Shown one piece after another: positions 8,496-35,621 of a stretch of 36,704 bases of DNA (the first letter of the stretch is position 1; each line of letters begins with the position of its first letter). The position numbers and the translations under genes were made by a program. The notes beneath the pieces are model-generated. The model made no database searches, was not told the origin of the DNA, and was given only the letters and a program-made list of their open reading frames with translations. Source of the DNA: Gemmatimonadota bacterium (GTDB taxonomy: Bacteria > ARS69); contig BQJX01000001.1 of assembly GCA_021604925.1 (NCBI GenBank), positions 1 to 36,704 on the forward strand, read 5' to 3'.

Positions 8496-8633
8496 ATCCA
8501 ACCAGGGTTTGCAGCAGACGATCACGGAGGCGCATACTGCGCTGTGAGCAACTCGGAATTGGGCTCCGCGGCTGGCCGAGAAGCGCCATGTGCATTTTCG
8601 CCGTCTGCGGTGCCCGCGGCTGCATCGCCAACC
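8496..8633 (+). repeat. type A attC-like repeat
   Basis: R''-like ATCCAAC (8496-8502, fits RYYYAAC), GGTTTGCAGC, TTGCAG 8509-8514 / CATACT 8533-8538 (18-nt spacer). Tail GGAATTGGGCTCCGCGGCTGGC...GCGGTGCCCGCGGCTGCA. The R' box is degenerate (GCCAACC). Confidence 0.6.
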
Positions 8634-8653
8634 GCGAGAAGGGGTGTTTCTGA

Positions 8654-9184
8654 ATGAGCGTGATTGACCAGAAGATTGTTGTCTCGACGTCTGTGGGTGT
8701 GCTCTCTGGCATCGCCTTTGCCACTTTGCTGGCACAAACCCCTGCCCCCGTAGTTCAAGATCTTGTCGAAGCGCGCGAGATCCGTGTCGTGAACGAGCTA
8801 GGCGACCCGGTCGTTCGTCTACTGAGCATGCCGGGAGGCGCTGGAGGCGTCGTTTCCGTCATTGACGATCAAGGTGCGGCAAGGGTCATGCTGGCAGCAA
8901 TCTTGCCGGGGACAGGAAACGCCAGTCTCGCAATCTCGGACCCGGGCGGAACGCCCATCGTACAGCTTGGTGGGGACGAATACGGGCAGTTGGCACTCCG
9001 TGCAGAGGGAAGGGACGCGGTGTGGGCTGGTCGGGATGATGCCGGCAATGGGTTCCTGAGCACCTGGTCTGCGGGTGGGAAGGAGACTGTGCACATCGGG
9101 TCTAGCAAGGTGGGGCACGGCGGCGTCGTCGAAGTGTACGACACCGAGGGCAACACCAGCGGGCGGACAGGCACGGGGAAGTGA
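8654..9184 (+). CDS. hypothetical membrane-anchored/secreted protein
   Basis: ORF 8654..9184. N-terminal hydrophobic segment VSTSVGVLSGIAFATLLAQ, Gly-rich repetitive body. No family recognised. Confidence 0.6.
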   Translation: MSVIDQKIVVSTSVGVLSGIAFATLLAQTPAPVVQDLVEAREIRVVNELGDPVVRLLSMPGGAGGVVSVIDDQGAARVMLAAILPGTGNASLAISDPGGTPIVQLGGDEYGQLALRAEGRDAVWAGRDDAGNGFLSTWSAGGKETVHIGSSKVGHGGVVEVYDTEGNTSGRTGTGK

Positions 9185-9217
9185 CCTAGTCCAAGTTGCA
9201 CCGGCCCCGTCCGGCCC

Positions 9218-9318
9218 TTCCAACTAGCGCTTGCCGCCGACGGATCGCCTGCGTCACGATGGTTGTGGATGCAACCACCGCGCCAAAGGCGCCGCAGCCG
9301 AAGCGCAACACGTTAGGC
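9218..9318 (+). repeat. type B attC-like site
   Basis: TTCCAAC-TA-GCGCTTGCCGCCGACGG ... CCGCAGCCGAAGCGC-AACAC-GTTAGGC. GCGCTT pairs with AAGCGC. The R' GTTAGGC (9312-9318) is a perfect GTTRRRY. Length is 101 bp. A type A left-end fragment GTCCAAGTTGCACCGG sits at 9189-9204. Confidence 0.6.
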
Positions 9319-9342
9319 GGTCCCGCAGAAGAGGAGGCATGT

Positions 9343-9825
9343 GTGGCCGTTCAGAGCAACGACGCTGCCGCGGTTCGCATCTTCCCGCCAGCTGTCCCGC
9401 TCGGCGTCGTGGTTCTCGGCGTCGTGCTGCACCATCTGGCACCCATCGAGTTGGACTTCTCTATCCCGCGTCCGGAGCGCTACTGGATCGGGGGTTTGAT
9501 CGTGGCCGGTGCCGTTCTTGGTCTGGGCCTGCCGTCCGTCGTGATGTTTCGGCGAGGTGGCCAGAGTGAGAATCCATGGAAGCCCACGACACACATTGAG
9601 GAGCGCGGCCCGTTTCGCGTGACGCGCAACCCCATGTACGTTCAGATGCTAGTGACATGCCTCGGGCTTGCAGTCGTTCTCATGAACTGGTGGGTGATGA
9701 TCCTCACGCCGATCGGCGCGTTGCTCCTCCGACAACTCGTGATTCTGCCGGAGGAGGAGTATCTGGAACGGAAGTTTGGTGACTCCTACCGATCATACAA
9801 GTCCAGAGTGAGGCGATGGCTCTAG
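9343..9825 (+). CDS. isoprenylcysteine carboxyl / phospholipid methyltransferase family membrane protein
   Basis: ORF 9196..9825. GTG 9343 lies 5 nt after GAGGAGG. GPFRVTRNPMYVQMLV...ILPEEEYLERKFGDSYRSYKSRVRRWL is typical of ICMT/PEMT-type enzymes. Confidence 0.8.
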   Translation: MAVQSNDAAAVRIFPPAVPLGVVVLGVVLHHLAPIELDFSIPRPERYWIGGLIVAGAVLGLGLPSVVMFRRGGQSENPWKPTTHIEERGPFRVTRNPMYVQMLVTCLGLAVVLMNWWVMILTPIGALLLRQLVILPEEEYLERKFGDSYRSYKSRVRRWL

Positions 9826-9859
9826 TTCCTGGTCACAGGCCTCGCGAAGCCGAGGTTCC

Positions 9860-9945
9860 GTCCAACGAGGGTTTGCAGCCGATGATCACCGCGGCGCATA
9901 CTGGGCGAAGGCGAGCACCCGCTGATGACGGTCGAGGCGGCCTAG
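9860..9945 (+). repeat. type A attC-like repeat, 3' half replaced
   Basis: GTCCAAC (9860-9866, perfect RYYYAAC), TTGCAG 9873-9878 / CATACT 9897-9902 (18-nt spacer). The tail runs directly into a truncated GNAT reading frame. Confidence 0.55.
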
Positions 9946-10152
9946 CGGCCCCGTCGTCCGTTCCGCGGGTACGGACGGTTGGCGACCGAGGCGTTGATCG
10001 AGCTGATGGTAGCGCAGGGATGCAAGGAGGTTCTGGTTGGCTATGCTGATGACAATCAAGTCGCCCGTAGCCTCTACCACAGCCTCGGATTCATCGAACA
10101 AGGGTTAGGCGAAGAAAGCGACATGGTGTCCCGATTCATTGTCGGAGCGTAG
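9946..10152 (+). pseudogene. GNAT acetyltransferase, C-terminal fragment only
   Basis: The frame opening after the stop at 9943-9945 reads RPRRPFRGYGRLATEALIELMVAQGCKEVLVGYADDNQVARSLYHSLGFIEQG...* . This covers motif A (RGYG) onward. No N-terminal half and no start codon. Confidence 0.6.
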
Positions 10153-10167
10153 GCGATCGGGAGGCGT

Positions 10168-10316
10168 GGCCTGTTAGCGTTTGCAGCCGACGAGCACCGC
10201 GGCGCGCGGCGCATACTGGGAAGTAGCTTGAATTGGGGTTTCGCGGCTGGCGCGGGTTGCTTCGTCTGGTCCTCCGCAATCCGCGCCGCTCGGAGCTGAG
10301 ACCCACGCCGTTGGCC
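10168..10316 (+). repeat. type A attC-like repeat, complete
   Basis: GGCC...GCGTTTGCAGCCGACG ... CGGAGCTGAGACCCACGCC-GTTGGCC (R' 10310-10316). The two arms pair with bulges. TTGCAG 10181-10186 / CATACT 10212-10217 with an expanded 25-nt spacer (extra GCGCGGC). Confidence 0.65.
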
Positions 10317-10360
10317 GCACGAACTCATGGAGGCATCCTCCCATCCTCTGGCTTCGTCTC

Positions 10361-10879
10361 TTGGGATTCCTTGGTCTCGTGTCGGTCACGCACGCGGGAG
10401 AACTCGTGCTCCCGCTGGACATTGGGGTTGGAGGCCTCACATCTCCGCACAGCGCGGTCATGTCGATCTCGATTCCCTCCGAGGTCCGAGACGCCGTAGC
10501 CGTCTCTCTAGAGATCGCCGGTACGTCGCGGGCTGGACTTGTCTCGAGCGTCCAGAAGCCTGAAGAGACGCGCGTCGGTCTACCACACGTGAGCTTCTAC
10601 CTTCCGGCTCCGGGCGTAACTCGCGGGGCATGGGGCGGTTCGACATACCTGGAGGAAGGGTCGTTTCGACTCCGCCTGCCAATGCTTTGGTCCCACCATG
10701 TCGCCAGGTCGGATCGGCTGAGCCCGCAATGGGGCGCGCTGGATTCAGCCATTGTGTCGGCCCGGTTGACAATGGATGAGGGAATGGCGGCTGGAGGTCT
10801 TTGGCGAGTTGAGCCATCCGTTCGGATCTGGGATGCCTCATTGGTCTTCGAGTTGCCTGACAACGAGGCGGCCAACTAG
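10361..10879 (+). CDS. hypothetical protein (possible signal peptide)
   Basis: ORF 10361..10879 (TTG start, uncertain). Protein-like composition. The stop TAG lies inside GGCCAAC-TAG of the next repeat. Confidence 0.5.
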   Translation: MGFLGLVSVTHAGELVLPLDIGVGGLTSPHSAVMSISIPSEVRDAVAVSLEIAGTSRAGLVSSVQKPEETRVGLPHVSFYLPAPGVTRGAWGGSTYLEEGSFRLRLPMLWSHHVARSDRLSPQWGALDSAIVSARLTMDEGMAAGGLWRVEPSVRIWDASLVFELPDNEAAN

Positions 10880-10970
10880 CGGTTGCAGCCGACGTCCTGC
10901 CAGTGTCATCCTGGCTGCGAGGCACCCCGGGCGCCATCGGCGTCCGCGGCTGATCCGCAACCCGTTGGCG
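10870..10970 (+). repeat. attC-like site, short variant of type A without the CATACT segment
   Basis: GGCCAAC-TAGC-GGTTGCAGCCGACG ...48 nt... CGTCCGCGGCTGATCCGCAACC-C-GTTGGCG. Three nested arm pairings (GCCAAC/GTTGGC, GGTTGC/GCAACC, AGCCGACG/CGTC..GGCT) with bulged bases. Length is 101 bp. Confidence 0.65.
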
Positions 10971-11058
10971 CACGAGGTCTTCGATGCATCTTCTGTGCTG
11001 GAATCGGGTCCGAGACGCAGACCAATGGATGGCCGTCTTCTCGTCGCACAAGACGGCG

Positions 11059-11160
11059 CGCGGCAGACGATCGCGGCGGCGCACACTGGAGAAGATCGGT
11101 TGGGGCGCTGTCGGAGCGGCGCCGACAGGCGTCGGCTCTTCGCCGTCCTCGGTCCCCACA
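11059..11160 (+). repeat. type A repeat lacking the R''/GGTTTGCA left end
   Basis: GCGGCAGACGATCGCGGCGGCGCACACTGGAGAAGATCGG...GGCTCTTCGCCGTCC aligns with the 13111 copy (ACTGGAGGAAGATCGG...GGCTCTTCGCCATCC). Internal stem CTGTCGG/CCGACAG. Confidence 0.45.
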
Positions 11161-11242
11161 GCAAGAATGCCGAGCACTAGGCAGCCTACTCTCTGGGCGC
11201 CGCGAACGCCCGAACCAGCCCTGCGACAACGGAGTTCGAACC

Positions 11243-11962
11243 ATGAACCACGACATCCCGCTCACACCTGTACGTGCTCGCCTCCTCGGACGCTGCGTCG
11301 GACTCTTGTTCCTAGTTACCTACGCAACGTCGATACCTGCGCTGCTGCTGTTTGGTCCCGTGCTGAACGACGCGCACTACGTGACCGGGGCGGGCTCTGA
11401 CACGCAGATCCGGTTCGCCGCACTGCTCGAGTTCATCCTGATCGTGGCGAACATAGGAAGTGCGGTCGTACTCTACCCGCTCCTGCGACGCTCCTTCCCT
11501 GCCGGTGCGATTGGTTTCGTCGCCGCCCGCATCACCGAGAGCGCCTTTATCGGCATCGGCATTCTCAGCGTGCTTGGCGTCGTGTCGCTTCGCGCATCGG
11601 GGAGCGATGGCGCGGCCCTTCCCATTGTCGCCGAGGCGCTCGTGGCGGTGAAGGACTGGAGCTTCCAGTTCGGGCCCGGTTTCGTCGTACCGATCGGCAA
11701 CGGCATGCTGCTCGGATGGATGATGTACCGCTCAGGTATGGTGCCGCGGCGCGTTGCGATGCTCGGGCTCGTCGGAGGTCCGGTCCTCTTCGCCGCCAGT
11801 GTCGGCATCCTTTTCGGCGGGCTCGACAAGGGCGACCCGTTGTACGCCGTCGCCGTGGCGCCGGAGTTCATCTGGGAACTGGCACTCGGTGTGTACCTGA
11901 CAGCAACCGGCGGTCGGGTTGCCGGACTGCTCGACCACGACTCAGTTCCATCGGCTTGCTGA
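11243..11962 (+). CDS. DUF4386-like integral membrane protein
   Basis: ORF 10883..11962. ATG 11243 (MNHDIPLTPVRARLLGRCVGLLFLVTYATS...). Multiple TM helices. Family assigned from memory of the DUF4386 pattern. Confidence 0.7.
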   Translation: MNHDIPLTPVRARLLGRCVGLLFLVTYATSIPALLLFGPVLNDAHYVTGAGSDTQIRFAALLEFILIVANIGSAVVLYPLLRRSFPAGAIGFVAARITESAFIGIGILSVLGVVSLRASGSDGAALPIVAEALVAVKDWSFQFGPGFVVPIGNGMLLGWMMYRSGMVPRRVAMLGLVGGPVLFAASVGILFGGLDKGDPLYAVAVAPEFIWELALGVYLTATGGRVAGLLDHDSVPSAC

Positions 11963-11975
11963 GCCAAGGTGGCAG

Positions 11976-12482
11976 ATGAGCATCACTCCACACCACGTGC
12001 TTGGCGCCATCGCGATCGGCGTGGGCGCCAGTGTCCTCATGGACGCATGGAACCTCTTCCTGAAACGAGCATGCGGCGTACGGTCGCTTGACTACTGCCT
12101 GCTCGGCCGCTGGCTACTTCACATGCCGGAGGGCACCTTCTTGCACTCGAGCATCGCCGTGGCACCGCCAAGACGTGGTGAATGCGCCGCGGGCTGGGTC
12201 GCCCACTACACGATCGGCGTCGGGCTCGCGACCGTGTTCCTCGCTCTGGCACCCGCCGACTGGCTTGAGCGACCAACCCTTCCGCATGCCCTTCTGTTTG
12301 GCATCGTCACAGTGGTGTTTCCGCTCTTCATACTGCAGCCTTCCCTCGGTCTCGGGGTCGCATCTTCAAAGACGCCCAGGCCTATGCAAGCTAGGCGCAA
12401 GAGCTTTGTGACACATATGGTCTTCGGAGTCGGATTGTATCTATGCGCCTTGGCCCTGAACCATCTACCATTCGCTGCCTAA
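11976..12482 (+). CDS. DUF2938-like membrane protein
   Basis: ORF 11919..12482. ATG 11976. GASVLMDAWNLFLKR...LLGRWLLHMPEGTF...GWVAHYTIG. The stop TAA lies inside the GCCTAAC box. Confidence 0.7.
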   Translation: MSITPHHVLGAIAIGVGASVLMDAWNLFLKRACGVRSLDYCLLGRWLLHMPEGTFLHSSIAVAPPRRGECAAGWVAHYTIGVGLATVFLALAPADWLERPTLPHALLFGIVTVVFPLFILQPSLGLGVASSKTPRPMQARRKSFVTHMVFGVGLYLCALALNHLPFAA

Positions 12483-12539
12483 CAAGCGTTGCAGCGGTCG
12501 GCCCGCTACGTGGTCCGCCGCTGAACCATGCTGCCAACC
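12477..12539 (+). repeat. short (about 63 bp) attC-like site
   Basis: GCCTAAC (perfect RYYYAAC) -AAGC- GTTGCAGCGG ... CCGCTGAAC -CATGCT- GCCAACC. The L''/L' arms pair with one bulge. Layout resembles the 60-bp aadA-type attC, but the R' position holds GCCAACC instead of GTTAGGC. Confidence 0.5.
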
Positions 12540-12553
12540 ACGACCAGGAACCC

Positions 12554-12919
12554 ATGCTCAAGCACGCCATTCCCGTAATCCACTGCACTTCGTCCGCTCG
12601 TGCGGAGCAGTTCTACTGCCGGCTTCTCGGGTTCGATCGTCGATTCGCGTACCGACCCCAGGAGTCACTCCCGGATCCCTGCTATCTGGGGCTTCTCCGG
12701 GACGGCGCTGCCATTCATGTCTCGTCGTTCCCTGGAGACGGAGCTGTTGGATCTGCCGTCTACGTCGTCGTTGATGACGTGGATACGCTCTACAAGGAAC
12801 TGGCGGGTCGGGGAGTCCAGATCTCGCTGGAGCCCACTGACCAAACGTGGGGGAACCGCGAGATGTATGTCGACGATCCGGACGGCAACAGCGTGCGCTT
12901 CGTGCAAGAGGGTGGCTAA
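12554..12919 (+). CDS. VOC/glyoxalase superfamily protein (bleomycin-resistance-protein-like)
   Basis: ORF 12443..12919. ATG 12554. IPVIHCTSSARAEQFYCRLLGF...TDQTWGNREMYVDDPDGNSVRF. The stop lies inside GGCTAAC. Confidence 0.85.
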   Translation: MLKHAIPVIHCTSSARAEQFYCRLLGFDRRFAYRPQESLPDPCYLGLLRDGAAIHVSSFPGDGAVGSAVYVVVDDVDTLYKELAGRGVQISLEPTDQTWGNREMYVDDPDGNSVRFVQEGG

Positions 12920-12953
12920 CTGGGGTTTGCGGCACTGGGAGTCGGCAGCAGCC
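12914..12953 (+). repeat. type A repeat with internal deletion
   Basis: GGCTAAC-TGG-GGTTTGC|GGC|ACTGGGAGTCGGC corresponds to the 16167 copy (GGTTTGCAGCGGACGATGACGCGGCGCATACTGGGAGTCGCG) minus about 24 nt. Confidence 0.4.
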
Positions 12954-12990
12954 TGGGATCGCTTCGCGATGCCTGTTCGAATGAGTTTGA

Positions 12991-13119
12991 GGCCCTGAAC
13001 GGCGATGCGAGGACTACACGGTGTCAGAAAATGGTCCCGCACGGGCGTTCTATCAAGGGCTCGGTTACGTTGACAGGCCACACTACGAGCTGCTTGAGAA
13101 GCCCCTGCGGGGCCCCTAG
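12991..13119 (+). pseudogene. GNAT acetyltransferase, extreme C-terminal fragment
   Basis: The frame after the stop at 12988-12990 reads GPERRCEDYTVSENGPARAFYQGLGYVDRPHYELLEKPLRGP*. The N..A..FY..GLGY tail is the GNAT C-terminal signature. No start codon and no N-terminal domain. Confidence 0.45.
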
Positions 13120-13253
13120 CTAGGGTTTGCAGATGATGATCCCCGCGGCGCATACTGGAGGAAGATCGGAAGCGGGCTCGGCGTCCGGTGGAGAGTCGCC
13201 ATCTGGCTCTTCGCCATCCGCGGTGCTCGCGGCTGAGATCCTTGCCGCCAGGC
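13111..13253 (+). repeat. type A attC-like repeat, long form
   Basis: CCCCTAGCTAG-GGTTTGCAG, TTGCAG 13127-13132 / CATACT 13151-13156 (18-nt spacer). Tail GAAGATCGGAAGCGGGCTCGGCG...GGCTCTTCGCCATCCGCGGTGCTCGCGGCTGAGATCC-TTGCC-GCCAGGC (mutated R'). Confidence 0.6.
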
Positions 13254-13299
13254 GGCAGACCAAGCTGTCTGGAAGACCACGGATGGAAGCGACTTCGAA

Positions 13300-14166
13300 A
13301 TGACGATCGCAGTGACGGCGGCCAGCGGCAAGCTCGGCTCAGAAATCATCAGGGCCGTGGCTCGCTTGGGATCTCATTCTGTCGTAGCGCTGGCTCGTAC
13401 TCCGTCGAAGGCGGAGTTCCTTGGCGTCGAAGTGCGAAGCGGCGACTATGACTCTCGGGTGGCACTTGAGAAGTCCCTTCGCGGTGTCAAGACGGTCTTG
13501 CTCGTTTCAGGCATGGACGAACCCGCAAGGCGCGTCGAACAGCACCGCAACGTGATTCGCGCGGCCGAGGATGCCGGTGTTCGCAAGATCGTCTACACCA
13601 GCGTGCAAGGGGCGGAAGCCGGCACCGCGTTCTCCCCGATCGTTCAGAGCAACCGCCAAACGGAACAGGATGTCCAGGACAGCCGACTGGACTGGGCGAT
13701 TGGCCGGAACGGAATCTACATCGAGCCGGACGTTGAGTTCATCGATGCCTACAAGAAGGCGGGCTGTATTGCGAACTGTGCCGGAGACCGCAAGTGCGGA
13801 TACACGACGCGTCCCGAGCTGGCTTATGCCTACGCGCGCATGTTGACGGAAGAGACGCACAACGGACAAACGTACAATCTGCACGGCGAGGCGCTCACTC
13901 AGGCGCAGTTGGCAAGCTATCTGAATCGCGCCTTTCACACGAATCTCAGCTACCGGGAAATGACCGTCGCAGCGTATGAGCAGGAGCGAGTGGCCGCGCT
14001 CGGGGAGTTTCTGGGGAGAGTCATCGCCGGCATCTACGCAGGTATTCGTGAGGGGGGCATGGACAATCCAAGCCATTTCTCGCATGCGGCAGGTAGGGAG
14101 CACCAGCGCTGGGCAGACTACTTTGCGGATGTTGGAACCGCGGCTGGCCAGGACCTTCTCCATTGA
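13300..14166 (+). CDS. NmrA-like / atypical SDR NAD(P)-binding protein
   Basis: ORF 13300..14166. MTIAVTAASGKLGSEIIRAV (Rossmann GxxGxxG-type) and the overall NmrA-family layout. Confidence 0.85.
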   Translation: MTIAVTAASGKLGSEIIRAVARLGSHSVVALARTPSKAEFLGVEVRSGDYDSRVALEKSLRGVKTVLLVSGMDEPARRVEQHRNVIRAAEDAGVRKIVYTSVQGAEAGTAFSPIVQSNRQTEQDVQDSRLDWAIGRNGIYIEPDVEFIDAYKKAGCIANCAGDRKCGYTTRPELAYAYARMLTEETHNGQTYNLHGEALTQAQLASYLNRAFHTNLSYREMTVAAYEQERVAALGEFLGRVIAGIYAGIREGGMDNPSHFSHAAGREHQRWADYFADVGTAAGQDLLH

Positions 14167-14360: not shown

Positions 14361-14361
14361 C

Positions 14362-16166: not shown

Positions 16167-16248
16167 GGCCAACTAGGGTTTGCAGCGGACGATGACGCGG
16201 CGCATACTGGGAGTCGCGCCGTGAGGCCGCGCGGAGATCGAGTTGCAG
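16167..16248 (+). repeat. type A attC-like repeat, short tail
   Basis: GGCCAAC-TAG-GGTTTGCAGCGGACGATGACGCGGCGCATACTGGGAG. It is plus-oriented although the upstream gene is on the minus strand. Confidence 0.6.
16180..16208 (+). promoter_or_regulatory. sigma70-like promoter candidate inside the repeat core (representative of 12 copies)
   Basis: TTGCAG (16180-16185) - 17 nt - CATACT (16203-16208), 58 nt upstream of ATG 16267. The same hexamers and 17-18 nt spacing recur in 11 of the 12 repeat copies carrying both hexamers. No experimental support. Confidence 0.3.
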
Positions 16249-18045: not shown

Positions 18046-18167
18046 ACTCAACGGACGGCGCTGCGAACCGCCACCAAGAGGAATGCCCATGATTCCTGTT
18101 TCCGGCCGCATCCATGTCAGGGGGGCGCGCCAGCGCCGGTCGCAGCCGAAGCGCAACACCGTTGGAC
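18046..18167 (+). repeat. type B attC-like site
   Basis: ACTCAAC (18046-18052, perfect RYYYAAC) -GGACGGCGCTGCGAACCGCC ... GGTCGCAGCCGAAGCGCAACACC-GTTGGAC (18161-18167, perfect GTTRRRY). The arms pair (TCAACGG/CCGTTGG, TGCGAACCG/CGGTCGCA). Length is 122 bp. Confidence 0.6.
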
Positions 18168-19214: not shown

Positions 19215-19353
19215 TGCAAAGGATTTGCGGCAGACGATCACTGCGGCGCATACTAGGTGGAAGGCGGCTTCCGCGTGGACGTCCGGCCACCTCCGTCACC
19301 GAGGCGGCGCGCGCCCCCCGGGCGTCGCACGCGCCCGCGGCTCAACCTCAACC
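19215..19353 (+). repeat. type A attC-like repeat
   Basis: GTGCAAAGGATTTGCGGCAGACGATCACTGCGGCGCATACTAGG. TTGCGG 19225-19230 / CATACT 19249-19254 (18-nt spacer). The tail ends CGCCCGCGGCTCAACCTCAACC. Plus-oriented after a minus-strand gene. Confidence 0.55.
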
Positions 19354-19804: not shown

Positions 19805-19895
19805 GTCCAACTAGGGTTTGCAGCGGACGAACACGGCGACGCATACTGACGAAAGGTCAAGGTCGGGCTCCGCGCCTGGCGGAAGGTCGAGCCAA
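19805..19895 (+). repeat. type A attC-like repeat
   Basis: GTCCAAC (19805-19811, perfect RYYYAAC) -TAG-GGTTTGCAGCGG. TTGCAG 19818-19823 / CATACT 19842-19847 (18-nt spacer). Tail GGTCGGGCTCCGCGCCTGGCGGAAGG. Confidence 0.6.
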
Positions 19896-19910
19896 GGGGG
19901 ATTCTCCGAG

Positions 19911-20471
19911 ATGGCAGTGCTCGAATACGATGACGAGGCAACGCGACGTTTGCTGGCCTTGTATGTCACCCCCGATGTTGTCGCCCAGCGGGCCGAGTTC
20001 CTGGGCGCGTTGGGACCGGCGCGGGGCGAGCGGGTTCTGGACGTCGGCGCAGGTCCGGGATTCTTGGCCGCCTCAATCGCCGAAGCGGTTGGCGACTCCG
20101 GGTCGGTGTGCGGTGTTGACGTCAGCGAACCACTGCTCACGATCGCACGGTCGCGGAGTGGTGACCAGCCTCACACGGAGTTCCGCTACGGAGACGCGAC
20201 CCAGCTCCCATACCCGGATGAGGCGTTGGATGCGGTGGTGTCGACTCAGGTGCTGGAGTACGTCCCCGATGTGGAAGCGGCCCTAGCGGAAATCCATCGG
20301 GTTCTCCGGGTCGGCGGGCGGGTGGCCCTCCTGGACACGGACTGGGACTCCATTGTGTGGCACTCCTCCGACCATGGGCGCATGACCCGAGTTCTTACGG
20401 CTTGGGAGGACCATGCGGCAGAAGCAATGAGTGGCCAGACTTCACCCGCCAACCAACGCGACGTCAGTTAG
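19911..20471 (+). CDS. class I SAM-dependent methyltransferase, possibly 3'-truncated
   Basis: ORF 19818..20471. ATG 19911 follows AAGGGGGA. VLDVGAGPGFLAASIA, VLEYVPD, LRVGGRVALLDTDW. It ends abruptly (...AWEDHAAEAMSGQTSPANQRDVS*) where related enzymes appear to continue. Confidence 0.7.
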   Translation: MAVLEYDDEATRRLLALYVTPDVVAQRAEFLGALGPARGERVLDVGAGPGFLAASIAEAVGDSGSVCGVDVSEPLLTIARSRSGDQPHTEFRYGDATQLPYPDEALDAVVSTQVLEYVPDVEAALAEIHRVLRVGGRVALLDTDWDSIVWHSSDHGRMTRVLTAWEDHAAEAMSGQTSPANQRDVS

Positions 20472-23376: not shown

Positions 23377-23673
23377 ATGGATGCAGGGCTGGTCGGCGCG
23401 GTGATCGGAGGCGCGGTGGGATTGGCCGGCGGGGCTGTCGGCACCTACTTCAGTATTCGGAACACGGACGGCCCGACGGAGCGGGCCTTCATGATCAAGG
23501 TGTCCATCATCGGGTGGGTTGCGGTCTTGCTGTTCGTCGGGCTGATGGCGCTGCTTCCCGGTCCCTACCGGCACCTGTTGTGGATTCCGTACGGAGTGCT
23601 GTTGCCACTCGGTATCATCAAGACCAACCGGCAGGTGGCAAAGATTCGAGAGGCCGAGCGGCGCGCCAACTAG
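23377..23673 (+). CDS. small membrane protein, hypothetical
   Basis: ORF 23362..23673. ATG 23377 lies 7 nt after GGAGGG. Three hydrophobic segments. The stop lies inside CGCCAAC-TAG. Confidence 0.6.
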   Translation: MDAGLVGAVIGGAVGLAGGAVGTYFSIRNTDGPTERAFMIKVSIIGWVAVLLFVGLMALLPGPYRHLLWIPYGVLLPLGIIKTNRQVAKIREAERRAN

Positions 23674-23824
23674 GGTTTGCCGGAGACGAGCGCGAGGCGC
23701 ATACTGGCAGAAGCCCCGCTCGCATCGACTCGTGCCACATGGACTCGGGCTCCGCGGCGAGATGACATTCGCCATGGCTGTCGTTGCCATGCGGTGCTCG
23801 CCGCTGCAACCCTGGCCATTGGGC
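23664..23824 (+). repeat. type A attC-like repeat, complete long form
   Basis: CGCCAAC-TAG-GGTTTGCCGG. TTGCCG 23677-23682 / CATACT 23700-23705 (17-nt spacer). Tail ...TTCGCCATGG...CATGCGGTGCTCGCCGCTGCAACCC-TGGCC-ATTGGGC. GCAACCC pairs with GGGTTTGC, and the R' box has one mismatch. Confidence 0.65.
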
Positions 23825-23847
23825 GGCCACAGTAGGTACGGGAAACG

Positions 23848-25547: not shown

Positions 25548-25650
25548 GCATTGGGATTGCAGCAGATGAGGACCGCGGCGCATACTGGGGATCCGTTGGA
25601 GGGCTCTGCACCCGGGCGGCGAGGGTCGGCTGGCGTCCGCCCGCGCTGGA
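25548..25650 (+). repeat. type A attC-like repeat, degenerate left box
   Basis: GCATTGGGATTGCAGCAGATGAGGACCGCGGCGCATACTGGGG. TTGCAG 25557-25562 / CATACT 25581-25586 (18-nt spacer). Tail GATCCGTTGGAGGGCTCTG resembles the 11059 copy. Confidence 0.5.
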
Positions 25651-29046: not shown

Positions 29047-29595
29047 GTGAGAGGGTCGGTGTTCGTAGGGACCAGCCTGGATGGGTTCATCGCTCGGGCG
29101 GACGGCGGCCTGGACTTTCTGCCAACGGATGACAGCGAGTCCCATGGCTTCGAGGAGTTTCTGGCCTCGGTGGACGGCCTGGTCATGGGCCGGAAGACGT
29201 ATGACTTCGTCGCAGACTCGGGCGAGTGGTTCTATGGCCGGAAGCCCGTGTTCGTCCTCACGTCACGCGATCTCGGGGAGCCGCCCGAGGGAGCGATCGT
29301 GGAGCGCGTGTCGGGCAGCCCCGAGGACGTCGCGCGATTGCTCGACGTGCGGGGCATCCGAGACGCTTACATCGATGGCGGAAGCACGGTTCAGCAGTTT
29401 CTTCGAGCGGGCCTCATTCAACGGCTGATCGTCACGCGCGTCCCCGTGCTCATCGGTTCGGGGATCTCACTCTTCGGTGCCCTTGAGGATGATATCCTCC
29501 TGCGGCACGTCGCGACCCGTCAGTTCAAGAGCGGGCTTGTCCAGAGTGAGTATGAGGTTGCGGGGCAACCCACTGGCGAGCACCGCGGCGAATAG
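29047..29595 (+). CDS. dihydrofolate reductase family protein (RibD C-terminal domain)
   Basis: In frame with ORF 28633..29595. GTG 29047 lies 6 nt after AAGGAGGG. VFVGTSLDGFIARADGGLDFL, LVMGRKTYDF, IDGGSTVQQFLRAGLIQRLIVTRVPVLIGSGISLF. Confidence 0.8.
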   Translation: MRGSVFVGTSLDGFIARADGGLDFLPTDDSESHGFEEFLASVDGLVMGRKTYDFVADSGEWFYGRKPVFVLTSRDLGEPPEGAIVERVSGSPEDVARLLDVRGIRDAYIDGGSTVQQFLRAGLIQRLIVTRVPVLIGSGISLFGALEDDILLRHVATRQFKSGLVQSEYEVAGQPTGEHRGE

Positions 29596-29662
29596 TGAGG
29601 GACGGTCGAGTCGCCCGTCCTGCGGTTGTCGTAGCTGAACGTCACCGTTTCCGGAGGCACCC

Positions 29663-30355: not shown

Positions 30356-30400
30356 CCCCCGGTGCTCACAGCTGAAACTCAATGCCGCCAGGCCGACAGG
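30356..30400 (+). repeat. type A repeat right-half remnant
   Basis: CCCCCGGTGCTCACAGCTGAAACTCAATGCCGCCAGGCCGACAGG aligns with CCGCGGTGCTCGCGGCTGAGATCCTTGCCGCCAGGCGGCAGACC (13219-13262). There is no left half or core. Confidence 0.4.
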
Positions 30401-30413
30401 AGTGTCGAGGTCG

Positions 30414-31049
30414 ATGAAAGCAACTCCGAAGTCGAAGATTCGCGATCTCTACGACTCGACGGCGGACTCGTACGCCCGGATGATGGACACGGAGATCGAC
30501 CTGCCACTGTACTCCGACGTTCTCGGTCGCCTCGCAGAGCGGATCACTGCGATCCGCGGTCCGGTCCTGGACACGTCCTGCGGATCGGGTCACATGTTGT
30601 TTCGGTACCGTGAACAGTACGACCCGGAGCGATCGGTCGTCGGTGTGGACCTCTCCCCCCGCATGGTCTCCCTTGCGAGACGCAAGTTGGGGTCCCAGGC
30701 AGAGATCCTGGTGGGCGACATGCGTGACCTGGGGCGGATCGAAACCGCTTCCTCCGCCGCAGTGCTGAGCTTCTTTGCGCTGCACCATCTCGATCCTGCC
30801 GATATCGTGCTGGCCCTTGAGGAGTGGCGACGCATCCTGCGCGCGGGCGGTCAACTCGTGCTGGCCACCTGGGAAGGAACCGGTGCCATCGACTATGGAG
30901 GAGACTCGGATGTCGTGGCGCTGCGATACCGCGAACGAGAGATCCGGGATTGGGTAGGGGCGGCCGGGTTCTCGGTGAGCCGATGTGTCGTGGAGCCCGT
31001 GGAGGGATTCCCCATGGACGCCGTGTACCTGGAAGGGACTCAAGAGTAG
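30414..31049 (+). CDS. class I SAM-dependent methyltransferase
   Basis: In frame with ORF 29919..31049. ATG 30414. VLDTSCGSGHMLF, VGVDLSPRMV, LSFFALHHL, LRAGGQLVLATW. Confidence 0.85.
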   Translation: MKATPKSKIRDLYDSTADSYARMMDTEIDLPLYSDVLGRLAERITAIRGPVLDTSCGSGHMLFRYREQYDPERSVVGVDLSPRMVSLARRKLGSQAEILVGDMRDLGRIETASSAAVLSFFALHHLDPADIVLALEEWRRILRAGGQLVLATWEGTGAIDYGGDSDVVALRYREREIRDWVGAAGFSVSRCVVEPVEGFPMDAVYLEGTQE

Positions 31050-31101
31050 CGATCAGGCGTTCGATCGAGCGTCGACGGGTGACGCCTGCTCTGGTGGCCC
31101 G

Positions 31102-31551
31102 TCAGCGCCACATCCCCCGCGCAATCGCCGTGGCCAGGCAAACGATGACCACCACGATCCCCGCCTGCGCGTGACTGATTCGCGCAAGGGCGCGGGCGGC
31201 TGACGTGTCCGGCGAACCGCCCTTGGCCAGCTTCTTCCGCCAGCCTATCAGCACGACCATCGGCCACACCTCCAGCGCCAGGATGAGCCCTACGAGGCCG
31301 AGCTTCGCGTGGAAGAGTCCGGTGGTCAGGTAGAACTCCGTGCCCTTTTCGATGGAGGAGAAGGCGCGGATCAGGCCCGTGGCAATCCAGAGGAAGCCCG
31401 CCAGGCCCCACAGCGCATCCGTGAGGAACACGCGGCGGAAGCCCGCGTCATCCAGCGTTCCCTTCAGCGCACGGGCGCGCGCGTACGCCGCCCCCAGGCC
31501 GATGCCGAGGGCGAGCAGATGCAATGTCGCAAGGATCCATCGGAGTTCCAT
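31102..31551 (-). CDS. small integral membrane protein (DUF2214-like)
   Basis: ORF 31102..31587. ATG 31551 (MELRWILATLHLLALGIGLG...). Four hydrophobic helices. The family call comes from memory only. Confidence 0.6.
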   Translation of the reverse strand: MELRWILATLHLLALGIGLGAAYARARALKGTLDDAGFRRVFLTDALWGLAGFLWIATGLIRAFSSIEKGTEFYLTTGLFHAKLGLVGLILALEVWPMVVLIGWRKKLAKGGSPDTSAARALARISHAQAGIVVVIVCLATAIARGMWR

Positions 31552-31973
31552 CGGGAGAGCATAGGCCAGGGAGCGGCAAAGCGGCAACAGGCATTGGGAT
31601 CCGGACCCATAGACGAGGCATCTCCGAAGCCGCCCAGGAGTTCTTCCGATGCCACGATGTCGCGCATGTCGTGTTTGGGTGTTCGACCGAGCTCCCGGAC
31701 GAGGGAGTTGTGAAGATGTGGAGCCTCTTCGGCACCAGTGCAGGGTTCGGTCTGCTGGCGGCCTATCGACTCCCCGAGTCCAAAGAGATCTATGAGACGA
31801 TCGGTTGGGGCTCGGTCGTTTCCACCGCCGTTCGCATGATGCGACTCACCCCGATCACGCTCTGGCGTTGCTTTCGGATGGTCAAGCGGTGGCCGTGGTC
31901 ACAGTTCGATCGATACCTGGACGTGCCTCTGGCCCAGATCCGTCGCGAGTACGGCATCCGGCTGGTGGCTTGA
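31524..31973 (+). CDS. Coq4-like HDxxH-x11-E motif protein, start uncertain or possibly 5'-truncated
   Basis: ORF 31524..31973. FFRCHDVAHVVFGCSTELPDEG fits the Coq4-type zinc-ligand spacing HDxxH-(x)11-E. The N-terminal ~25 codons overlap the divergent 31102..31551 gene. Confidence 0.45.
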   Translation: MSQGSIGVPSGEHRPGSGKAATGIGIRTHRRGISEAAQEFFRCHDVAHVVFGCSTELPDEGVVKMWSLFGTSAGFGLLAAYRLPESKEIYETIGWGSVVSTAVRMMRLTPITLWRCFRMVKRWPWSQFDRYLDVPLAQIRREYGIRLVA

Positions 31974-32053
31974 TTGGCGAGAGGCGATGGCCGCCGGGTT
32001 CCGATCCGTCCGGCGGATGATGAGCCGTTCTCCGGGAGAGCGCGTTCGGAGGC

Positions 32054-32190
32054 AGCCAACCAGGGTTGCAACCATCGATCACCGCGGCGCATACTGTCTA
32101 CAGACGCGCAAGGGTTTCGCGAGTGACTCAACGCTGCCAGGGCATCTTCGCCATCCGCGGTACTCGCAACTGGACCGCCTACCGTGGGGC
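32054..32190 (+). repeat. type A attC-like repeat, long form
   Basis: AGCCAAC-CAG-GGTTGCAACC. TTGCAA 32066-32071 / CATACT 32090-32095 (18-nt spacer). Tail GGCATCTTCGCCATCCGCGGTACTCGCAACTGGACCGCCTACCGTGGGG parallels the 13111 copy. Confidence 0.6.
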
Positions 32191-32198
32191 TGACGCTC

Positions 32199-33065
32199 AT
32201 GGATCTCCCAAGCATCCTTTTGGCCACAGCGCTGAGCGTCCACAGCATCTCGCCGGGGCAGTTTCCGGGAGGCGAGATCCGAGTGGCTGCGCCCGAGAAC
32301 TGGGCGTTCTCCGGGGACGGGTTCAGTCCCATGCGCTATCTCACCGTAAGTGCATCCCTCAACAACCAAGGCAACGACAGGATGCGAGTGACCGCGCTGG
32401 TCGAGTCCGTCCACGTGGAGCCCACGCCGATCCCCCCCGGAGCCGCCCGGATCGACTCTGTCAAAGCCCGTTTCGGAGTTGGACAGTACGGCTCTCGCAT
32501 TTTCTACAACGAGCGCGCGTTCGAGGCCGCGTTGGAGCCGGGGACGATCTACGTTTCGATCGAATTCAGCTCGTTTCTTCCTCCCACCACGTACCTGTGG
32601 ACGGAGGATGATTCGCCACAGAGACGTTTGGAAGCGTTGGCGAGCGCGCGGGAACCCACCTGGGACACGGACCGCTCGCTCGGGTTTCAGTCGCTGCTTC
32701 TCTGCTGGGGGCGTCCCTGGATCGTCCGTCTCGTGGCCTGCAAGCCGTTTCGTGAGAGCGAGCTGGAGGAGGCATTCGCGATCGTGCGATCGATGACCTT
32801 CTCAAGTTCACGGCTCGTGAGCGAGCGCCATGCGGTTGAACTTGCGACCGCCGCTCTTCCCGATCACATGCGGATCTCCGAGGACTTGCGTACCGAGGAG
32901 GATCAGGCCAAACGGTACCATGACGTCGTTGTTCGAAAGGAGGAGGGCACGGTCTACGTCGAGTTTCGGCTCCTGGACGGAAGTGCCGACCGGACGATCC
33001 TGGATCGTCGCGCGTACCGCGTTGGCTGGAACCGTACGGTCACCGAGGTCGTGCCGGGGCCGTGA
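32199..33065 (+). CDS. hypothetical protein
   Basis: ORF 32184..33065. ATG 32199 is preferred because GTG 32184 lies inside the repeat tail. No family recognised. Confidence 0.55.
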   Translation: MDLPSILLATALSVHSISPGQFPGGEIRVAAPENWAFSGDGFSPMRYLTVSASLNNQGNDRMRVTALVESVHVEPTPIPPGAARIDSVKARFGVGQYGSRIFYNERAFEAALEPGTIYVSIEFSSFLPPTTYLWTEDDSPQRRLEALASAREPTWDTDRSLGFQSLLLCWGRPWIVRLVACKPFRESELEEAFAIVRSMTFSSSRLVSERHAVELATAALPDHMRISEDLRTEEDQAKRYHDVVVRKEEGTVYVEFRLLDGSADRTILDRRAYRVGWNRTVTEVVPGP

Positions 33066-33164
33066 AGCGCGCAGGGTGGTAGGTAGGGATCGAGCTGGTG
33101 CCTGGCGGCCAAGGCCGGTCCGGGGTGGGTTCTATTTCGTGGGGTAGGACCCGATCCATGTATC

Positions 33165-33213
33165 GTTGGCCGCTGAATCCAGCTGGAGGGATCCGCCCGT
33201 CCAGCTGTCCAAC
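33165..33213. repeat. 49-bp imperfect hairpin with core-site-like ends in reversed order
   Basis: GTTGGCC (33165-33171) ... CAGCTGGA / TCCAGCTG 8-bp stem ... GTCCAAC (33207-33213), i.e. an R'-like box first and an R''-like box last. Confidence 0.35.
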
Positions 33214-33237
33214 CAAACGACAGGAGTAGGAGGTCGA

Positions 33238-33624
33238 ATGAAGCGAGTCACCGGGATCGGCGGCATCTTCTTCAAGGCCAAAGACGCGCCGACGCTGCGG
33301 GCCTGGTACAAGCGCCACCTCGGCATCGACGTTCAGGAATGGGGAGGTACCGCGTTCTCCTGGAGCGATGCGGAGGGCAAGCCCACCGCGGGGATGACCA
33401 TCTGGTCCGTCGGTCCCGCGGAAGGTGACCAGTTCGCTCCCAGCCAGGCATCCTTCATGGTCAACTACCGGGTCGAGGACCTCCACGGCCTGGTCAAGCT
33501 TCTCAAGAAAGAAGGATGCGAAGTCCTCGACCGGATCGACGAATCGGAGTTCGGAAAGTTCGCGTGGGTCATCGACCCCGAGGGAAACAAGGTCGAGTTG
33601 TGGCAACCGCCGGCTGGCCAATGA
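33238..33624 (+). CDS. VOC/glyoxalase family protein
   Basis: In frame with ORF 33166..33624. ATG 33238 follows GGAGTAGGAGG. ITGIGGIFFKAKDAPTLRAWYKRHLGI...FAWVIDPEGNKVELWQP. Confidence 0.85.
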   Translation: MKRVTGIGGIFFKAKDAPTLRAWYKRHLGIDVQEWGGTAFSWSDAEGKPTAGMTIWSVGPAEGDQFAPSQASFMVNYRVEDLHGLVKLLKKEGCEVLDRIDESEFGKFAWVIDPEGNKVELWQPPAGQ

Positions 33625-33674
33625 ACTGGCCCGTCTCCGGCGACCGCGACTGAGCGGGGGAAGGTTCCGCCCAG

Positions 33675-34418
33675 CTAGGTAGATCCATCCTCCTTGCCGC
33701 CGGCGTTGTAGATGACCGGCATCCGACCCTGCCAATCGGACCAGACGCCTGCGTCCGTGATGAGGTCCGCCATGAAGTGGGCGACATTGATCCGACTCGT
33801 CACGCCGGCGTCGAAGATGGCGCTGCGAATCGGCGAAGGGTGCAGGCTGTACTCCGACACCGTGTCCTCGTCGACCAGTCCATCCGGACGCACCGCAACC
33901 CACCCGAGCCTGGGATCCTCCTGGCCGACTTTCCGGCGCAGGTAGTCGGCGGCCTGCTCGTTGTCCACGTGCGGCGGCAGCAACAGGCGAAGCAGGACCA
34001 GGACGCTCTTCTGGGCGAACGAGACTTGTTCTTCAAGGTCCCGGTTGCGGTTTCCGGTGGTGTTCATGAGCACGAACTTGGCGGGTAGGTCGCGCTCTTG
34101 CTCTCGTAAGGCCTCGCAGATCCGACGCGTCGCGTCCGTGACCAGTCTTCGAGGCGATCCGTACACGCCCTGGAACGTCAGGTTGTGGCCCAGGCAGGAC
34201 GCGGCGGCACCGCATCCCGACACGAGCTGCGCGATGTCCCGGTCGCTCATCTCGGCGATGCTGCCCTCGATCACGGCCAGGTTCGGGTCACACAGGAGCT
34301 CGTCTCCCAGCCTGGACGGCGTGCGCGCGACCGCCTTCACGCGCTGCCCCCTCCCCAGAAGCTCCCTCACCAGGAGTCGCCCGGTGGCGCCGGTGGCGCC
34401 CACGATCAGGGAAGTCAT
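33675..34418 (-). CDS. NAD(P)-binding (NAD(P)H-binding / atypical SDR) protein
   Basis: ORF 33675..34898. ATG 34418 gives MTSLIVGATGATGRLLVRELLGRGQRVKAVAR (Rossmann motif). The upstream part of the long ORF runs through the repeat and is rejected. Confidence 0.8.
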   Translation of the reverse strand: MTSLIVGATGATGRLLVRELLGRGQRVKAVARTPSRLGDELLCDPNLAVIEGSIAEMSDRDIAQLVSGCGAAASCLGHNLTFQGVYGSPRRLVTDATRRICEALREQERDLPAKFVLMNTTGNRNRDLEEQVSFAQKSVLVLLRLLLPPHVDNEQAADYLRRKVGQEDPRLGWVAVRPDGLVDEDTVSEYSLHPSPIRSAIFDAGVTSRINVAHFMADLITDAGVWSDWQGRMPVIYNAGGKEDGST

Positions 34419-34504
34419 CTTGCCTCTTCGTTCCGGTGGGTGGATGGTCGTCCGTTCGCCGACGATAACACGGAAAGGGAAGAACGTTGGCCGCGCCGCG
34501 GGGC

Positions 34505-34552
34505 GACTTGCATCCGACGATGACCGCGGCGCATACTGGTGCCGCGGCAACC
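34505..34552 (+). repeat. type A core, short copy
   Basis: GACTTGCATCCGACGATGACCGCGGCGCATACTGG-TGCC-GCGGCAACC. TTGCAT 34508-34513 / CATACT 34532-34537 (18-nt spacer). A GTTGGCC box lies upstream of the core at 34486-34492. Confidence 0.5.
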
Positions 34553-34577
34553 ATTCCGAGTCCCAGCAAGGACCCCA

Positions 34578-35162
34578 ATGAACATGGAACCACGGAACGT
34601 CACCTACTTCGAGACGCCACAGGCGTTTCGGGGCTGGCTGGCGAAGAACCATGCGTCTTCCGATGAGCTCTGGGTTGGATACTGGAAGAAGTCGGTCGGG
34701 CAACCGAGTATTGCCTGGGAAGAGTCCGTGGACGAGGCGCTGTGCTTCGGTTGGATCGACGGCATCCGAAAGCGAATCGATGACCGGGCGTTCACGATTC
34801 GTTTCACGCCCAGGCGTGCGAAGAGCATCTGGAGCTCTCGGAACCTGGAGCGGTTCGCGGAACTGTCGGCGGCGGGGCGGGTCTCGGCTGCAGGGCACGC
34901 AGCGTTCCGAAAGCGGGTCGAAGCCCGCTCAGAGGTGTACTCCTATGAGCAGGGGAGCGAGCCCCAGCTGCCGGCAGACTACGTCGCCCGGCTTCGCGAG
35001 AACCGGGCCGGTTGGCTCGACTGGGAGTCGCGACCGCCGGGATACCGACGGCAGGTGGCGCATTGGGTCATGAGCGCCAAGAGGGAGTCGACCCGGGAGC
35101 GTCGGCTGGCTGCCCTGATCGAGGATTCGGCGGCGGGCCGCAAGATAAAGCCACTCCGGTAA
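34578..35162 (+). CDS. YdeI/OmpD-associated family protein (DUF1801-related)
   Basis: In frame with ORF 34539..35162. ATG 34578. FETPQAFRGWLAKNHASSDELWVGYWKK...EALCFGWIDGIRKRIDD...FTPRRAKSIWS...HWVMSAKRESTRERRL. Confidence 0.8.
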   Translation: MNMEPRNVTYFETPQAFRGWLAKNHASSDELWVGYWKKSVGQPSIAWEESVDEALCFGWIDGIRKRIDDRAFTIRFTPRRAKSIWSSRNLERFAELSAAGRVSAAGHAAFRKRVEARSEVYSYEQGSEPQLPADYVARLRENRAGWLDWESRPPGYRRQVAHWVMSAKRESTRERRLAALIEDSAAGRKIKPLR

Positions 35163-35212
35163 CTCCCGGTAGCGGGGGAGGTAGGCGATCCGATGGTCGG
35201 AGGAGTCGCGCG

Positions 35213-35515
35213 ATGACGTTCATGGACTGGTCGGATGCAAACGGCATGTACGGCCTGCTTCTCGACTTCGTCGCCGACGCAAGAATGGACTGCAACGCGG
35301 ACTCGGATCGGGAACGTTTCCTTTCCGAACTGCTGGCCCGGCTGCGGGCCACGGAACGGGAACTTGCGGAGGCCTCGCCGGCCGTCATCATCCGCACGTT
35401 GAGAGAAACCCAGGAGTCGATCGATCCCGAGTTCGCGGGCGATCCGGTCGTGGAGCATCTACGAGACTGCATTGAAGAGATCGAGCGAGTTCAGGGAGAC
35501 GAGCCGGCCAACTAG
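35213..35515 (+). CDS. hypothetical acidic protein
   Basis: In frame with ORF 35012..35515. ATG 35213 lies 7 nt after GGAGGAG. The stop TAG lies inside GGCCAAC-TAG. Confidence 0.55.
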   Translation: MTFMDWSDANGMYGLLLDFVADARMDCNADSDRERFLSELLARLRATERELAEASPAVIIRTLRETQESIDPEFAGDPVVEHLRDCIEEIERVQGDEPAN

Positions 35516-35621
35516 GCGCGGTGGACGCGCACTCCTGCCACACGAGCGTCTCGCCCGCCGCACGCAACTACCGTTTGCCCCGGGTCCGCCGTGCGGCGCA
35601 TACTCCGCAGGTTCGTTGGCC
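35506..35621 (+). repeat. attC-like site, last copy, variant architecture
   Basis: GGCCAAC (35506-35512) and GTTGGCC (35615-35621) are perfect inverted complements. The core is displaced about 60 nt rightwards: CGCAAC-TACC-GTTTGCCC, TTGCCC 35575-35580 / CATACT 35599-35604 (18-nt spacer). Confidence 0.6.

Follow-up and report, generated by a model that had tools for sequence, protein, structure and literature searches.

Why does the same pair of promoter-like hexamers recur before one gene after another in a long array of gene cassettes? The question is raised by a 36,704-nt stretch (positions 1 to 36,704 of contig BQJX01000001.1, assembly GCA_021604925.1; hereafter the window) from the Gemmatimonadota metagenome-assembled genome (MAG) DHS20C21, the host named for an identical protein. 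Repeats in this stretch, recognizable as integron attC recombination sites, contain TTGCVN followed by CATACT, which the original prediction read as the −35 and −10 elements of a sigma-70-type promoter aimed at each downstream cassette. As detailed below, the left arm in which the hexamers lie is best explained as belonging to a long, new type of attC site, in a cassette array that is decaying and has no integrase. The 12 repeats are probably the 5' arms of this lineage-specific family, with hexamers and spacing that stem from descent and from the architecture of the site.

A search for TTGCVN-N{17,25}-CATACT yields 12 matches on the + strand of the window and none on the − strand, against a mean of 0.06 and a maximum of 1 in dinucleotide-preserving shuffles. 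The matches, in which TTGCVN starts at 8509, 9873, 10181, 13127, 16180, 19225, 19818, 23677, 25557, 32066, 34508 and 35575, are exactly those on which the promoter claim was built, and the same spacer lengths were recovered: nine copies have 18 nt, those at 16180 and 23677 have 17 nt, and a GC-rich 7-nt duplication (CCGCGGCGCGCGGCGCATACT) has stretched the spacer at 10181 to 25 nt. Two further elements of the claim were confirmed as well: + strand start codons lie ~40-144 nt past every copy except 9873, which by translation leads into a start-less GNAT fragment, and CATACT has the A at position 2 and the T at position 6 (A-11/T-7). All 12 copies can be aligned as a single repeat family (family D1), that is, one attC family co-oriented with its cassettes, with a left arm of ~60 nt running from R'' to CATACTGGG and a very well conserved inner block spanning approximately AGGGTTTGCAG to CATACTGG. 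Every entry in the list of 12 is real, but some members of the family are not on it. With a profile search, two decayed copies turn up in the window, at 11061-11185 (CACACT) and 29572-29622 (AATAGT), and two more CATACT copies lie just right of the window end, at ~39929 and ~41556, which brings the family to at least 14 copies in the window and 16 in the contig.

Complete copies show where the block lies in the site. These attCs, ~140-165 nt long, consist of R'' (CCAAC/CTAAC), 4-5 nt, the L'' box GGGTTTGCAGC, a stem CGACGATCACCGCGGCG, CATACTGG and a variable, branched apex of 60-90 nt, followed in the right half by CGCC, CCGCGGTGCTCGC, the L' box GGCTGAAACCC and R' (GTTRGGC). We computed a consensus fold with RNAalifold on seven full copies, five from the window and the others from two cassette arrays found elsewhere (L014 and L031, see below). 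In this fold of 22 pairs, the "−35" contributes TTT and CAG, which pair with AAA and CTG of the right arm (TTT.CAG/CTGAAA) around a bulged G, the one in TTGCAG. The "spacer" segments CGA, CACCGC and GGCG have their partners in TCG, GCGGTG and CGCC of the right arm, and CATACT is unpaired at the base of the variable apex. A second extrahelical base, the A of CGACGA, lies 6 nt past the bulged G, giving two bulges at a fixed spacing on the R''/L'' side, an arrangement also seen in characterized attCs such as attC-aadA7 (GTT[C]AAGCCG[A]CG). Standard pairs occupy 89.5% of cells in register, compared with 30-49% when the partners are slid by one to three columns. Both-sided changes are confined to two pairs, among them column 15/161, where most window copies have G-C but L014 and L031 have C-G. 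In individual folds, the central CATACT bases are predicted to be unpaired in most cases, on both strands, and in short variants (copies 8509, 16180, 34508 and 35575) CATACT forms a hairpin loop. TTGCAG, which had been assigned to the variable centre of the attC, would instead be part of the L'' integrase-binding box with its extrahelical G, and the spacer would be stem.

Inverse core sites are present at the level of the family, with GCCTAAC...GTTAGGC in L014, GTCTAAC in the first L031 copy and R' GTTGGGC in the second. In the window they are partly preserved, since exact RYYYAAC occurs in 3 of the 12 copies, the CCAAC core in six (plus GCAAC at 35575) and a recognizable R' in about three. 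Similarly, the hairpin is a property of the family that only five of the 12 window copies can form, the other seven having no right arm. No Rfam family matches the window at gathering thresholds, and a permissive scan of one copy returned one chance match (E=0.24). Duplex energies between the left arm and the downstream 230 nt (|z| < 2) are uninformative, because any GC-rich background pairs about as well.

The spacing is clarified by a sister family of 102-nt sites, here called type A, to whose left arm that of the CATACT family is homologous. Type-A sites read TTGCAG-N18-CACCCT-GG (two window copies have CATCCT and CACGAT), with the hexamers at the same positions and the same 18-nt distance as in the CATACT family, and again with the G of TTGCAG bulged and a second bulge 6 nt later. 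The consensus fold of 12 type-A attCs from L014, L031 and the window comprises 39 pairs, 11 of which show compensatory changes. Both hexamers are within the hairpin, where CACCCTGG mostly pairs with CCAGGG. Two things set the CATACT family apart: a longer, different apex and a more AT-rich hexamer. Because the sister family has identical geometry, with its hexamers in a compensated hairpin, the 18-nt gap taken for promoter spacing is better viewed as an inherited constant. In terms of the predicted folds, the "promoter spacer" geometry is an architectural constant of this attC superfamily.

Relatives of the CATACT family are rare. Genome and metagenome scans with the pattern TTGCNNNNGAYGAN{6,7}GGCGCATACT returned 31 loci, among which only L014 and L031, both cassette arrays, are true relatives, the rest being single chance matches. 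A viral scan with CCGCGGCGCATACTG gave chance matches only; one of them (L035) looked similar, but sits within a phage ORF (open reading frame) and was rejected. None of the homologue flanks (L057-L063) of the DUF1801 protein (35655-36140) and of a 103-aa ORF (23362-23673) contains the CATACT-type attC family. L014 is a complete MAG chromosome (OZ244210.1) with about a dozen cassettes between near-identical 102-104-nt attCs and one CATACT-type site, GCCTAAC-TAGC-GTTTGCAGCCGACGATCACCGCGGCGCATACTGGGG ... CGCC ... GCGGTGCTCGCAGCTGAAACGC ... GTTAGGC. The bottom strand of this site folds as a textbook attC, with paired R'/R'', a short unpaired spacer, a bulged L'/L'' stem and a branched apex. Positions 1-8000 of L014 contain three attC types: besides the CATACT-type site there are at least nine near-identical sites of 102 nt and two of 104 nt, the latter with another centre. 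Judging by sequence alone, many of the cassettes there would code for small proteins that are secreted or resemble lipoproteins. The other relative, L031, is a contig of 3 kb whose cassettes, again judging by sequence, apparently include toxin-antitoxin pairs; it has three ordinary attCs and two of the CATACT type. One of the two (1140-1275, − strand) has no R''-L'' (no TTGCAG) and is fused to an ORF end; it keeps CGACGATCACCGCGGCGCATACTGGGG and a perfect right arm ending in the GTTGGGC mentioned above, mirroring the left-arm-only copies of the window. The CATACT type accounts for most recognizable attCs in the window, one of ~13 in L014 and two of five in L031.

The integron integrase IntI binds the R and L boxes of the folded, single-stranded bottom strand of an attC, the bulges mark the strand, and crossover takes place at G|TT of R'. 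CATACT-type sites would be used in the same way, their bottom strand folding into a hairpin with R and L boxes for IntI, bulges to mark the strand and a crossover point in R'. The "−35" would then be the L'' box, its G one of the two bulges 6 nt apart, the "spacer" would be stem, paired with the right arm, and the "−10" would be an unpaired junction motif at the position of CACCCT/CATCCT in the sister family. The identity of the hexamers and their 17-18-nt spacing would thereby be explained by common descent and recombination-site architecture.

Most copies in the window are probably no longer recombinogenic. Extents were measured against a 151-position profile with nhmmer and are listed in Table 1. 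Full length is retained only by copies 8509, 10181, 13127, 23677 and 32066. Five of the 12 have no CCAAC core in R'', and R' is for the most part degenerate. The terminal boxes are indeed less conserved here than the inner block, as had been claimed, but the comparison is biased because the copies were ascertained by searching for the block itself. To judge by the loss of terminal boxes, the deletion of right arms and the pseudogene joint at 9873, the array is decaying. When copies were detected by the spacer alone (14 nt, up to three substitutions), 11 were found, of which nine keep both hexamers and the two decayed ones have lost both. Decay therefore looks all-or-none per copy, the hexamers not being spared. 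In the alignment, the GCGGCG and GG flanks are as invariant as the hexamers, and copy 10181, with its 25-nt spacer, is conserved just as well.

Table 1. Members of the CATACT family in the window, with neighboring attC sites and the GNAT fragment (nhmmer ranges are profile positions)
Feature	Position	Strand	Details
Complete attC, copy 8509	8496..8642	+	nhmmer 2-147, E=2e-36; R'' TCCAAC, L'' GGGTTTGCAG, stem, CATACT, variable apex, right arm CTGCGGTGCCCGCGGCTGCA; R' degenerate
Type-A attC, ~100 nt, without CATACT	9219..9318	+	TTCCAAC...GTTAGGC, TTGCCG-N18-CACGAT; hairpin
Copy 9873, left arm and apex only, right arm deleted	9861..9956	+	nhmmer 3-105; joined to GNAT pseudogene
C-terminal GNAT fragment without start, at deletion joint	9958..10152	+	translation ...RGYGRLATEALIELMVAQGCKEVLVGYADDNQVARSLYHSLGF..., stop 10150-10152
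Complete attC, copy 10181	10170..10320	+	nhmmer 4-149, E=6e-30; R' GTTGGCC 10310-10316, R'' degenerate CCTGTTAG
Type-A attC	10870..10970	+	GGCCAAC...GTTGGCG, TTGCAG-N18-CATCCT; hairpin
Decayed attC (CACACT, TTGCAG lost)	11061..11185	+	nhmmer 18-148, E=1e-8
Complete attC, copy 13127	13115..13257	+	nhmmer 3-149, E=9e-35; R'' and R' degenerate
Copy 16180, left arm only, 17-nt spacer	16168..16225	+	nhmmer 3-67; methyltransferase ATG ~16266 next
Further canonical attC hairpin without CATACT	18046..18167	+	CTCAACGG ... CCGTTGGAC
Copy 19225, left arm without R''	19220..19276	+	nhmmer 10-76; type-A right arm at 19313-19354
Copy 19818, left arm, apex, start of right stem	19805..19923	+	nhmmer 2-121; L' and R' absent
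Complete attC, copy 23677, 17-nt spacer	23665..23828	+	nhmmer 3-149; minimum free energy fold pairs R''/L'' with L'/R'
Copy 25557, left arm only, no R''	25553..25611	+	nhmmer 11-76
Decayed short copy GCGAGCACCGCGGCGAATAGT...	29572..29622	+	AATAGT; profile search
Right arm alone CCCCGGTGCTCACAGCTGAAACTC	30359..30393	+	nhmmer 112-145
Complete attC, copy 32066	32054..32195	+	nhmmer 2-150, E=1e-28
Copy 34508, left arm only	34508..34544	+	nhmmer 15-51; CCGCGGC/GCCGCGG can form stem, loop GCATACTGGT
Copy 35575, short diverged variant	35563..35621	+	GCAAC, TTTGCCCC, CATACT in small loop; missed by nhmmer; R'-like GTTGGCC at 35615-35621

Several copies show how sites and genes have become joined. At 23677, the upstream ORF stops (23665-23673) at the TAG of CCAACTAG, inside the R''-TAG of the site, and at 19818 the ATG of a methyltransferase gene (~19914) is inside the remnant of the copy. 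The site at 19225 appears from its two arms to be a hybrid or degenerate one. The combination of a CATACT left arm with a type-A-like right arm, which groups with type-A 10922-10963 (repeat family D10), suggests exchange or rearrangement between the two attC families. The left neighbors of copies 19225 and 34508, both without R'', are reverse-oriented genes (SnoaL-like at 18705-19241 and NAD-binding at 33675-34418, both − strand), so these copies lie in divergent intergenic regions. In two places a CATACT-type site comes ~90-110 nt after another attC, leaving empty cassettes without an ORF (10970-11061 and ~13010-13115), a kind suggested elsewhere to carry promoters. The first of these is empty because the decayed copy directly adjoins the type-A site.

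Some of what we observed weighs against an explanation by descent and site architecture. The left arm is kept without a right arm in seven of the 12 copies, compared with only one clear right-arm-only copy, so that the block persists where recombination is no longer possible. CATACT, though unpaired in the consensus fold, is conserved better than any other block and has the same sequence in three independent arrays (the window, L014 and L031); pairing gives no account of its conservation. Covariation in the CATACT family is not significant, the observed values being reached by 89-186 of 500 shuffles, because the family is too conserved and has only seven full copies. No integrase was found in the 56 kb examined, and recombination activity is presumed from the sites. 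Scored with a crude position weight matrix against a GC-rich background, the 11 copies of normal spacing are among the top 0.02-0.14% of window positions. The A at −11 and the T at −7 are followed by a GGG "discriminator," and in the scanned stretch of the array (8000-27999) the + strand yielded no better sigma-70-like call. Several of these points would be expected if the left arm also carried an outward-facing sigma-70-type promoter (TTGCAG-N17/18-CATACT, then GGG) transcribing the next cassette, which we regard as possible though unlikely. A promoter would explain why the block is retained in copies unable to recombine and why it dominates an array without integrase or Pc, the CATACT type predominating here and not in L014 or L031. 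All but one of the 12 copies have a spacer of 17-18 nt, and genes start 41-77 nt downstream of the truncated copies 16180, 25557, 34508 and 35575. There is also precedent for a promoter that bridges an attC (PMC2945992) and for transcription starts within one (PMC11014356).

However, of the 12 consensus positions the hexamers match only seven (TTGCAG 3/6 compared with TTGACA, CATACT 4/6 compared with TATAAT), a simple class of sites of which there are 165 in the window. At a threshold of nine of 12 consensus positions, the promoter scan of 8000-27999 called none of the eight copies there, its four calls all being on the − strand, compared with 2.4 expected from shuffles. The "−35" and the spacer are already accounted for as L'' box and stem, and the sister family with the same spacing has CACCCT, a poor −10. 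The hexamer-specific conservation that a promoter predicts was not seen, since spacer (GAYGA, CACCGCGG) and flanks are about equally conserved, copy 10181 is no exception despite its spacing, and the decayed copies have lost both hexamers together. Moreover, copy 9873 faces a dead GNAT fragment, the copies were ascertained by the hexamers themselves, and a literature search found nothing relevant on Gemmatimonadota promoters. An ECF-type (extracytoplasmic function) promoter, considered on account of an ECF-like sigma gene at 198-998, was rejected because the motif is unlike the ECF form GGAAC-N16-17-CGT. The original prediction had regarded a conserved attC centre as unusual and compensatory substitutions with the right arm as evidence against a promoter. 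The second point is borne out in part, since the "−35" and the spacer pair with the right arm and CATACT does not. The premise about the centre holds only for mobile integrons, because in long chromosomal arrays attCs are as a rule homogeneous, central parts included (PMC4889954), as are the near-identical 102-nt attCs of L014; taxon-specific attC models exist (PMC8352920). In our view the block is unlikely to be a promoter under selection, though measurable activity of some degree in a reporter assay is somewhat more likely. It is decidedly unlikely that the left arm does double duty, with L'' as the −35 and a junction motif changed from CACCCT to CATACT(GGG) as the −10 plus discriminator. 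In that case, the transcript would begin inside the hairpin, and so without the inhibitory left arm, and would read into the next cassette. If true, this would imply selection on the arm after integrase loss and would explain why left arms outlast right arms.

Rather than a promoter or a mere mark of shared ancestry, the unpaired motif at the junction, GCGCATACTGG, could be bound sequence-specifically by the cognate IntI or by a host factor, or it could nucleate or stop folding at the base of the apex. Every full copy has it precisely where stem and apex meet, it does not vary among arrays that differ in the apex (the second L031 copy compared with L014), and its unpaired central bases and its place in the hairpin loop of the short variants would fit such a role. 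Nevertheless, a contact or folding role gives no reason for the motif to be present in copies without right arms, and we know of no such element in attC sites, the apex being seen as a dispensable, variable part, which makes this quite improbable. It is hardly credible, lastly, that the repeats are not attCs and belong to another class, such as a REP/MITE-like element (repetitive extragenic palindrome/miniature inverted-repeat transposable element) or the conserved 5' leader of a gene family. This would suit the seven copies without a right arm, the five without a CCAAC core and the lack of a nearby integrase, but not the full copies, which show the whole R''-L''-bulges-stem-L'-R' layout, nor the canonical copy within a canonical array. 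The homology of the left arm to type-A attCs, the single orientation of the repeats between cassettes only, the unrelated genes downstream and the lack of an Rfam match also argue against it. Descent within an attC family thus remains our preferred explanation, with the invariance of the unpaired GCGCATACTGG across three unrelated samples as its one unexplained feature.

Two coding roles for the repeats were discarded. An antisense ORF starting from the ATG complementary to the CAT of CATACT was judged spurious, as it has no ribosome-binding site and runs antisense into upstream genes. A 21-codon ORF (8588-8653, MCIFAVCGARGCIANREKGCF) in the right half of attC 8496-8642, whose stop overlaps the next start (TGAATG), is reminiscent of the short ORFs in attC sites that have been suggested to help downstream cassettes be translated. 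A conserved short ORF for translational coupling was rejected, since it is present only in copy 8509.

The array continues past both ends of the window. Two Logan contigs (L032 and L033, run DRR328264) overlap it and add 9.8 kb on its left and 9.4 kb on its right. The array spans ~50 kb, from ~-5.3 kb to ~+45 kb in window coordinates. From ~6 kb on, small, unrelated, mostly + strand genes are each followed by a repeat, as expected of attCs, which in a tandem array lie at the 3' ends of ORFs with the same orientation. The products include GNATs, a helix-turn-helix protein, PEMT, DUF4386, DUF2938, glyoxalases, NmrA-like proteins, methyltransferases, an SBF transporter, DUF1801, SnoaL-like proteins, SulP and a Ser/Thr kinase. 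Two of the genes are unusually large for cassettes, namely those for a 560-aa SulP/STAS transporter (23848-25530) and for the ~900-aa Ser/Thr kinase with Tricorn/PD40 repeats (26256-28985), and each is flanked by attC remnants. The array is broken by a module at 198-6025 consisting of the ECF-like sigma factor gene (− strand) and genes for a beta-helix protein and a 1037-aa TPR-CHAT protein, to the left of which attC-bounded small genes resume in the left extension (reverse complement of L033, ~4470-9400). An independent Logan contig reproduces positions 25655-36704, including three copies, by which an assembly chimera at the repeat was rejected; another ends within copy 8509, as expected because 8509 is a repeat. 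No Phage_integrase domain was found in 30 scanned ORFs of the window or in the called genes of L032 and L033 (56 kb in all), a six-frame search for intI pseudogenes not having been made. [quoted passage not shown]

This case offers a nicely resolved view of a long, partly decayed array with two related attC families in an uncultured Gemmatimonadota bacterium, and shows how recombination-site architecture can mimic a promoter. A family-wide attC promoter, if true, would be a general answer to the expression of distal cassettes in large or integrase-less arrays, a problem so far addressed only by scattered cassette-borne promoters and ORF-less promoter cassettes. Both of these are established (PMC8876359, PMC6557892, PMC11014356). 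They provide distal expression independent of Pc, and the array described here likewise has ORF-less intervals ending in a CATACT-type site, but cassette-borne promoters sit in the cassette body or 5' untranslated region and not in the conserved part of a recombination site. A promoter on a single attC site is not undescribed. In Vibrio sp. DAT722, a sigma-70-type promoter is reported to bridge an attC, with a 40-fold transcript step (PMC2945992), and for cassette F2 transcription starts were mapped inside its attC (PMC11014356). As here, the −35/−10-like pair overlaps the attC and is aimed at the next cassette. These are single sites with experimental transcripts, whereas here a whole family shares hexamers that are known from sequence alone; a promoter common to an entire attC family was not found described in the integron literature covered. 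The array resembles the CALINs defined by Cury et al. 2016 (PMC4889954) in its many attCs and cassettes with no intI called in the window or the 9.8- and 9.4-kb flanks, but is far larger than the average CALIN (~5 attC sites) and is interrupted by the sigma-factor/beta-helix/CHAT-TPR module. The closest likeness in site architecture is to the attCs of sedentary chromosomal integrons, such as the VCRs (Vibrio cholerae repeats) of Vibrio, which also have R''/R' core sites, a two-bulge L''/L' stem and a variable apex, follow a co-oriented ORF and show high whole-site identity within an array (PMC4889954, PMC8352920). Unlike these, most copies in the window are truncated or have degenerate R boxes, the host belongs to the Gemmatimonadota, and the sites are long, with a branched apex and a conserved unpaired CATACTGG at its base.

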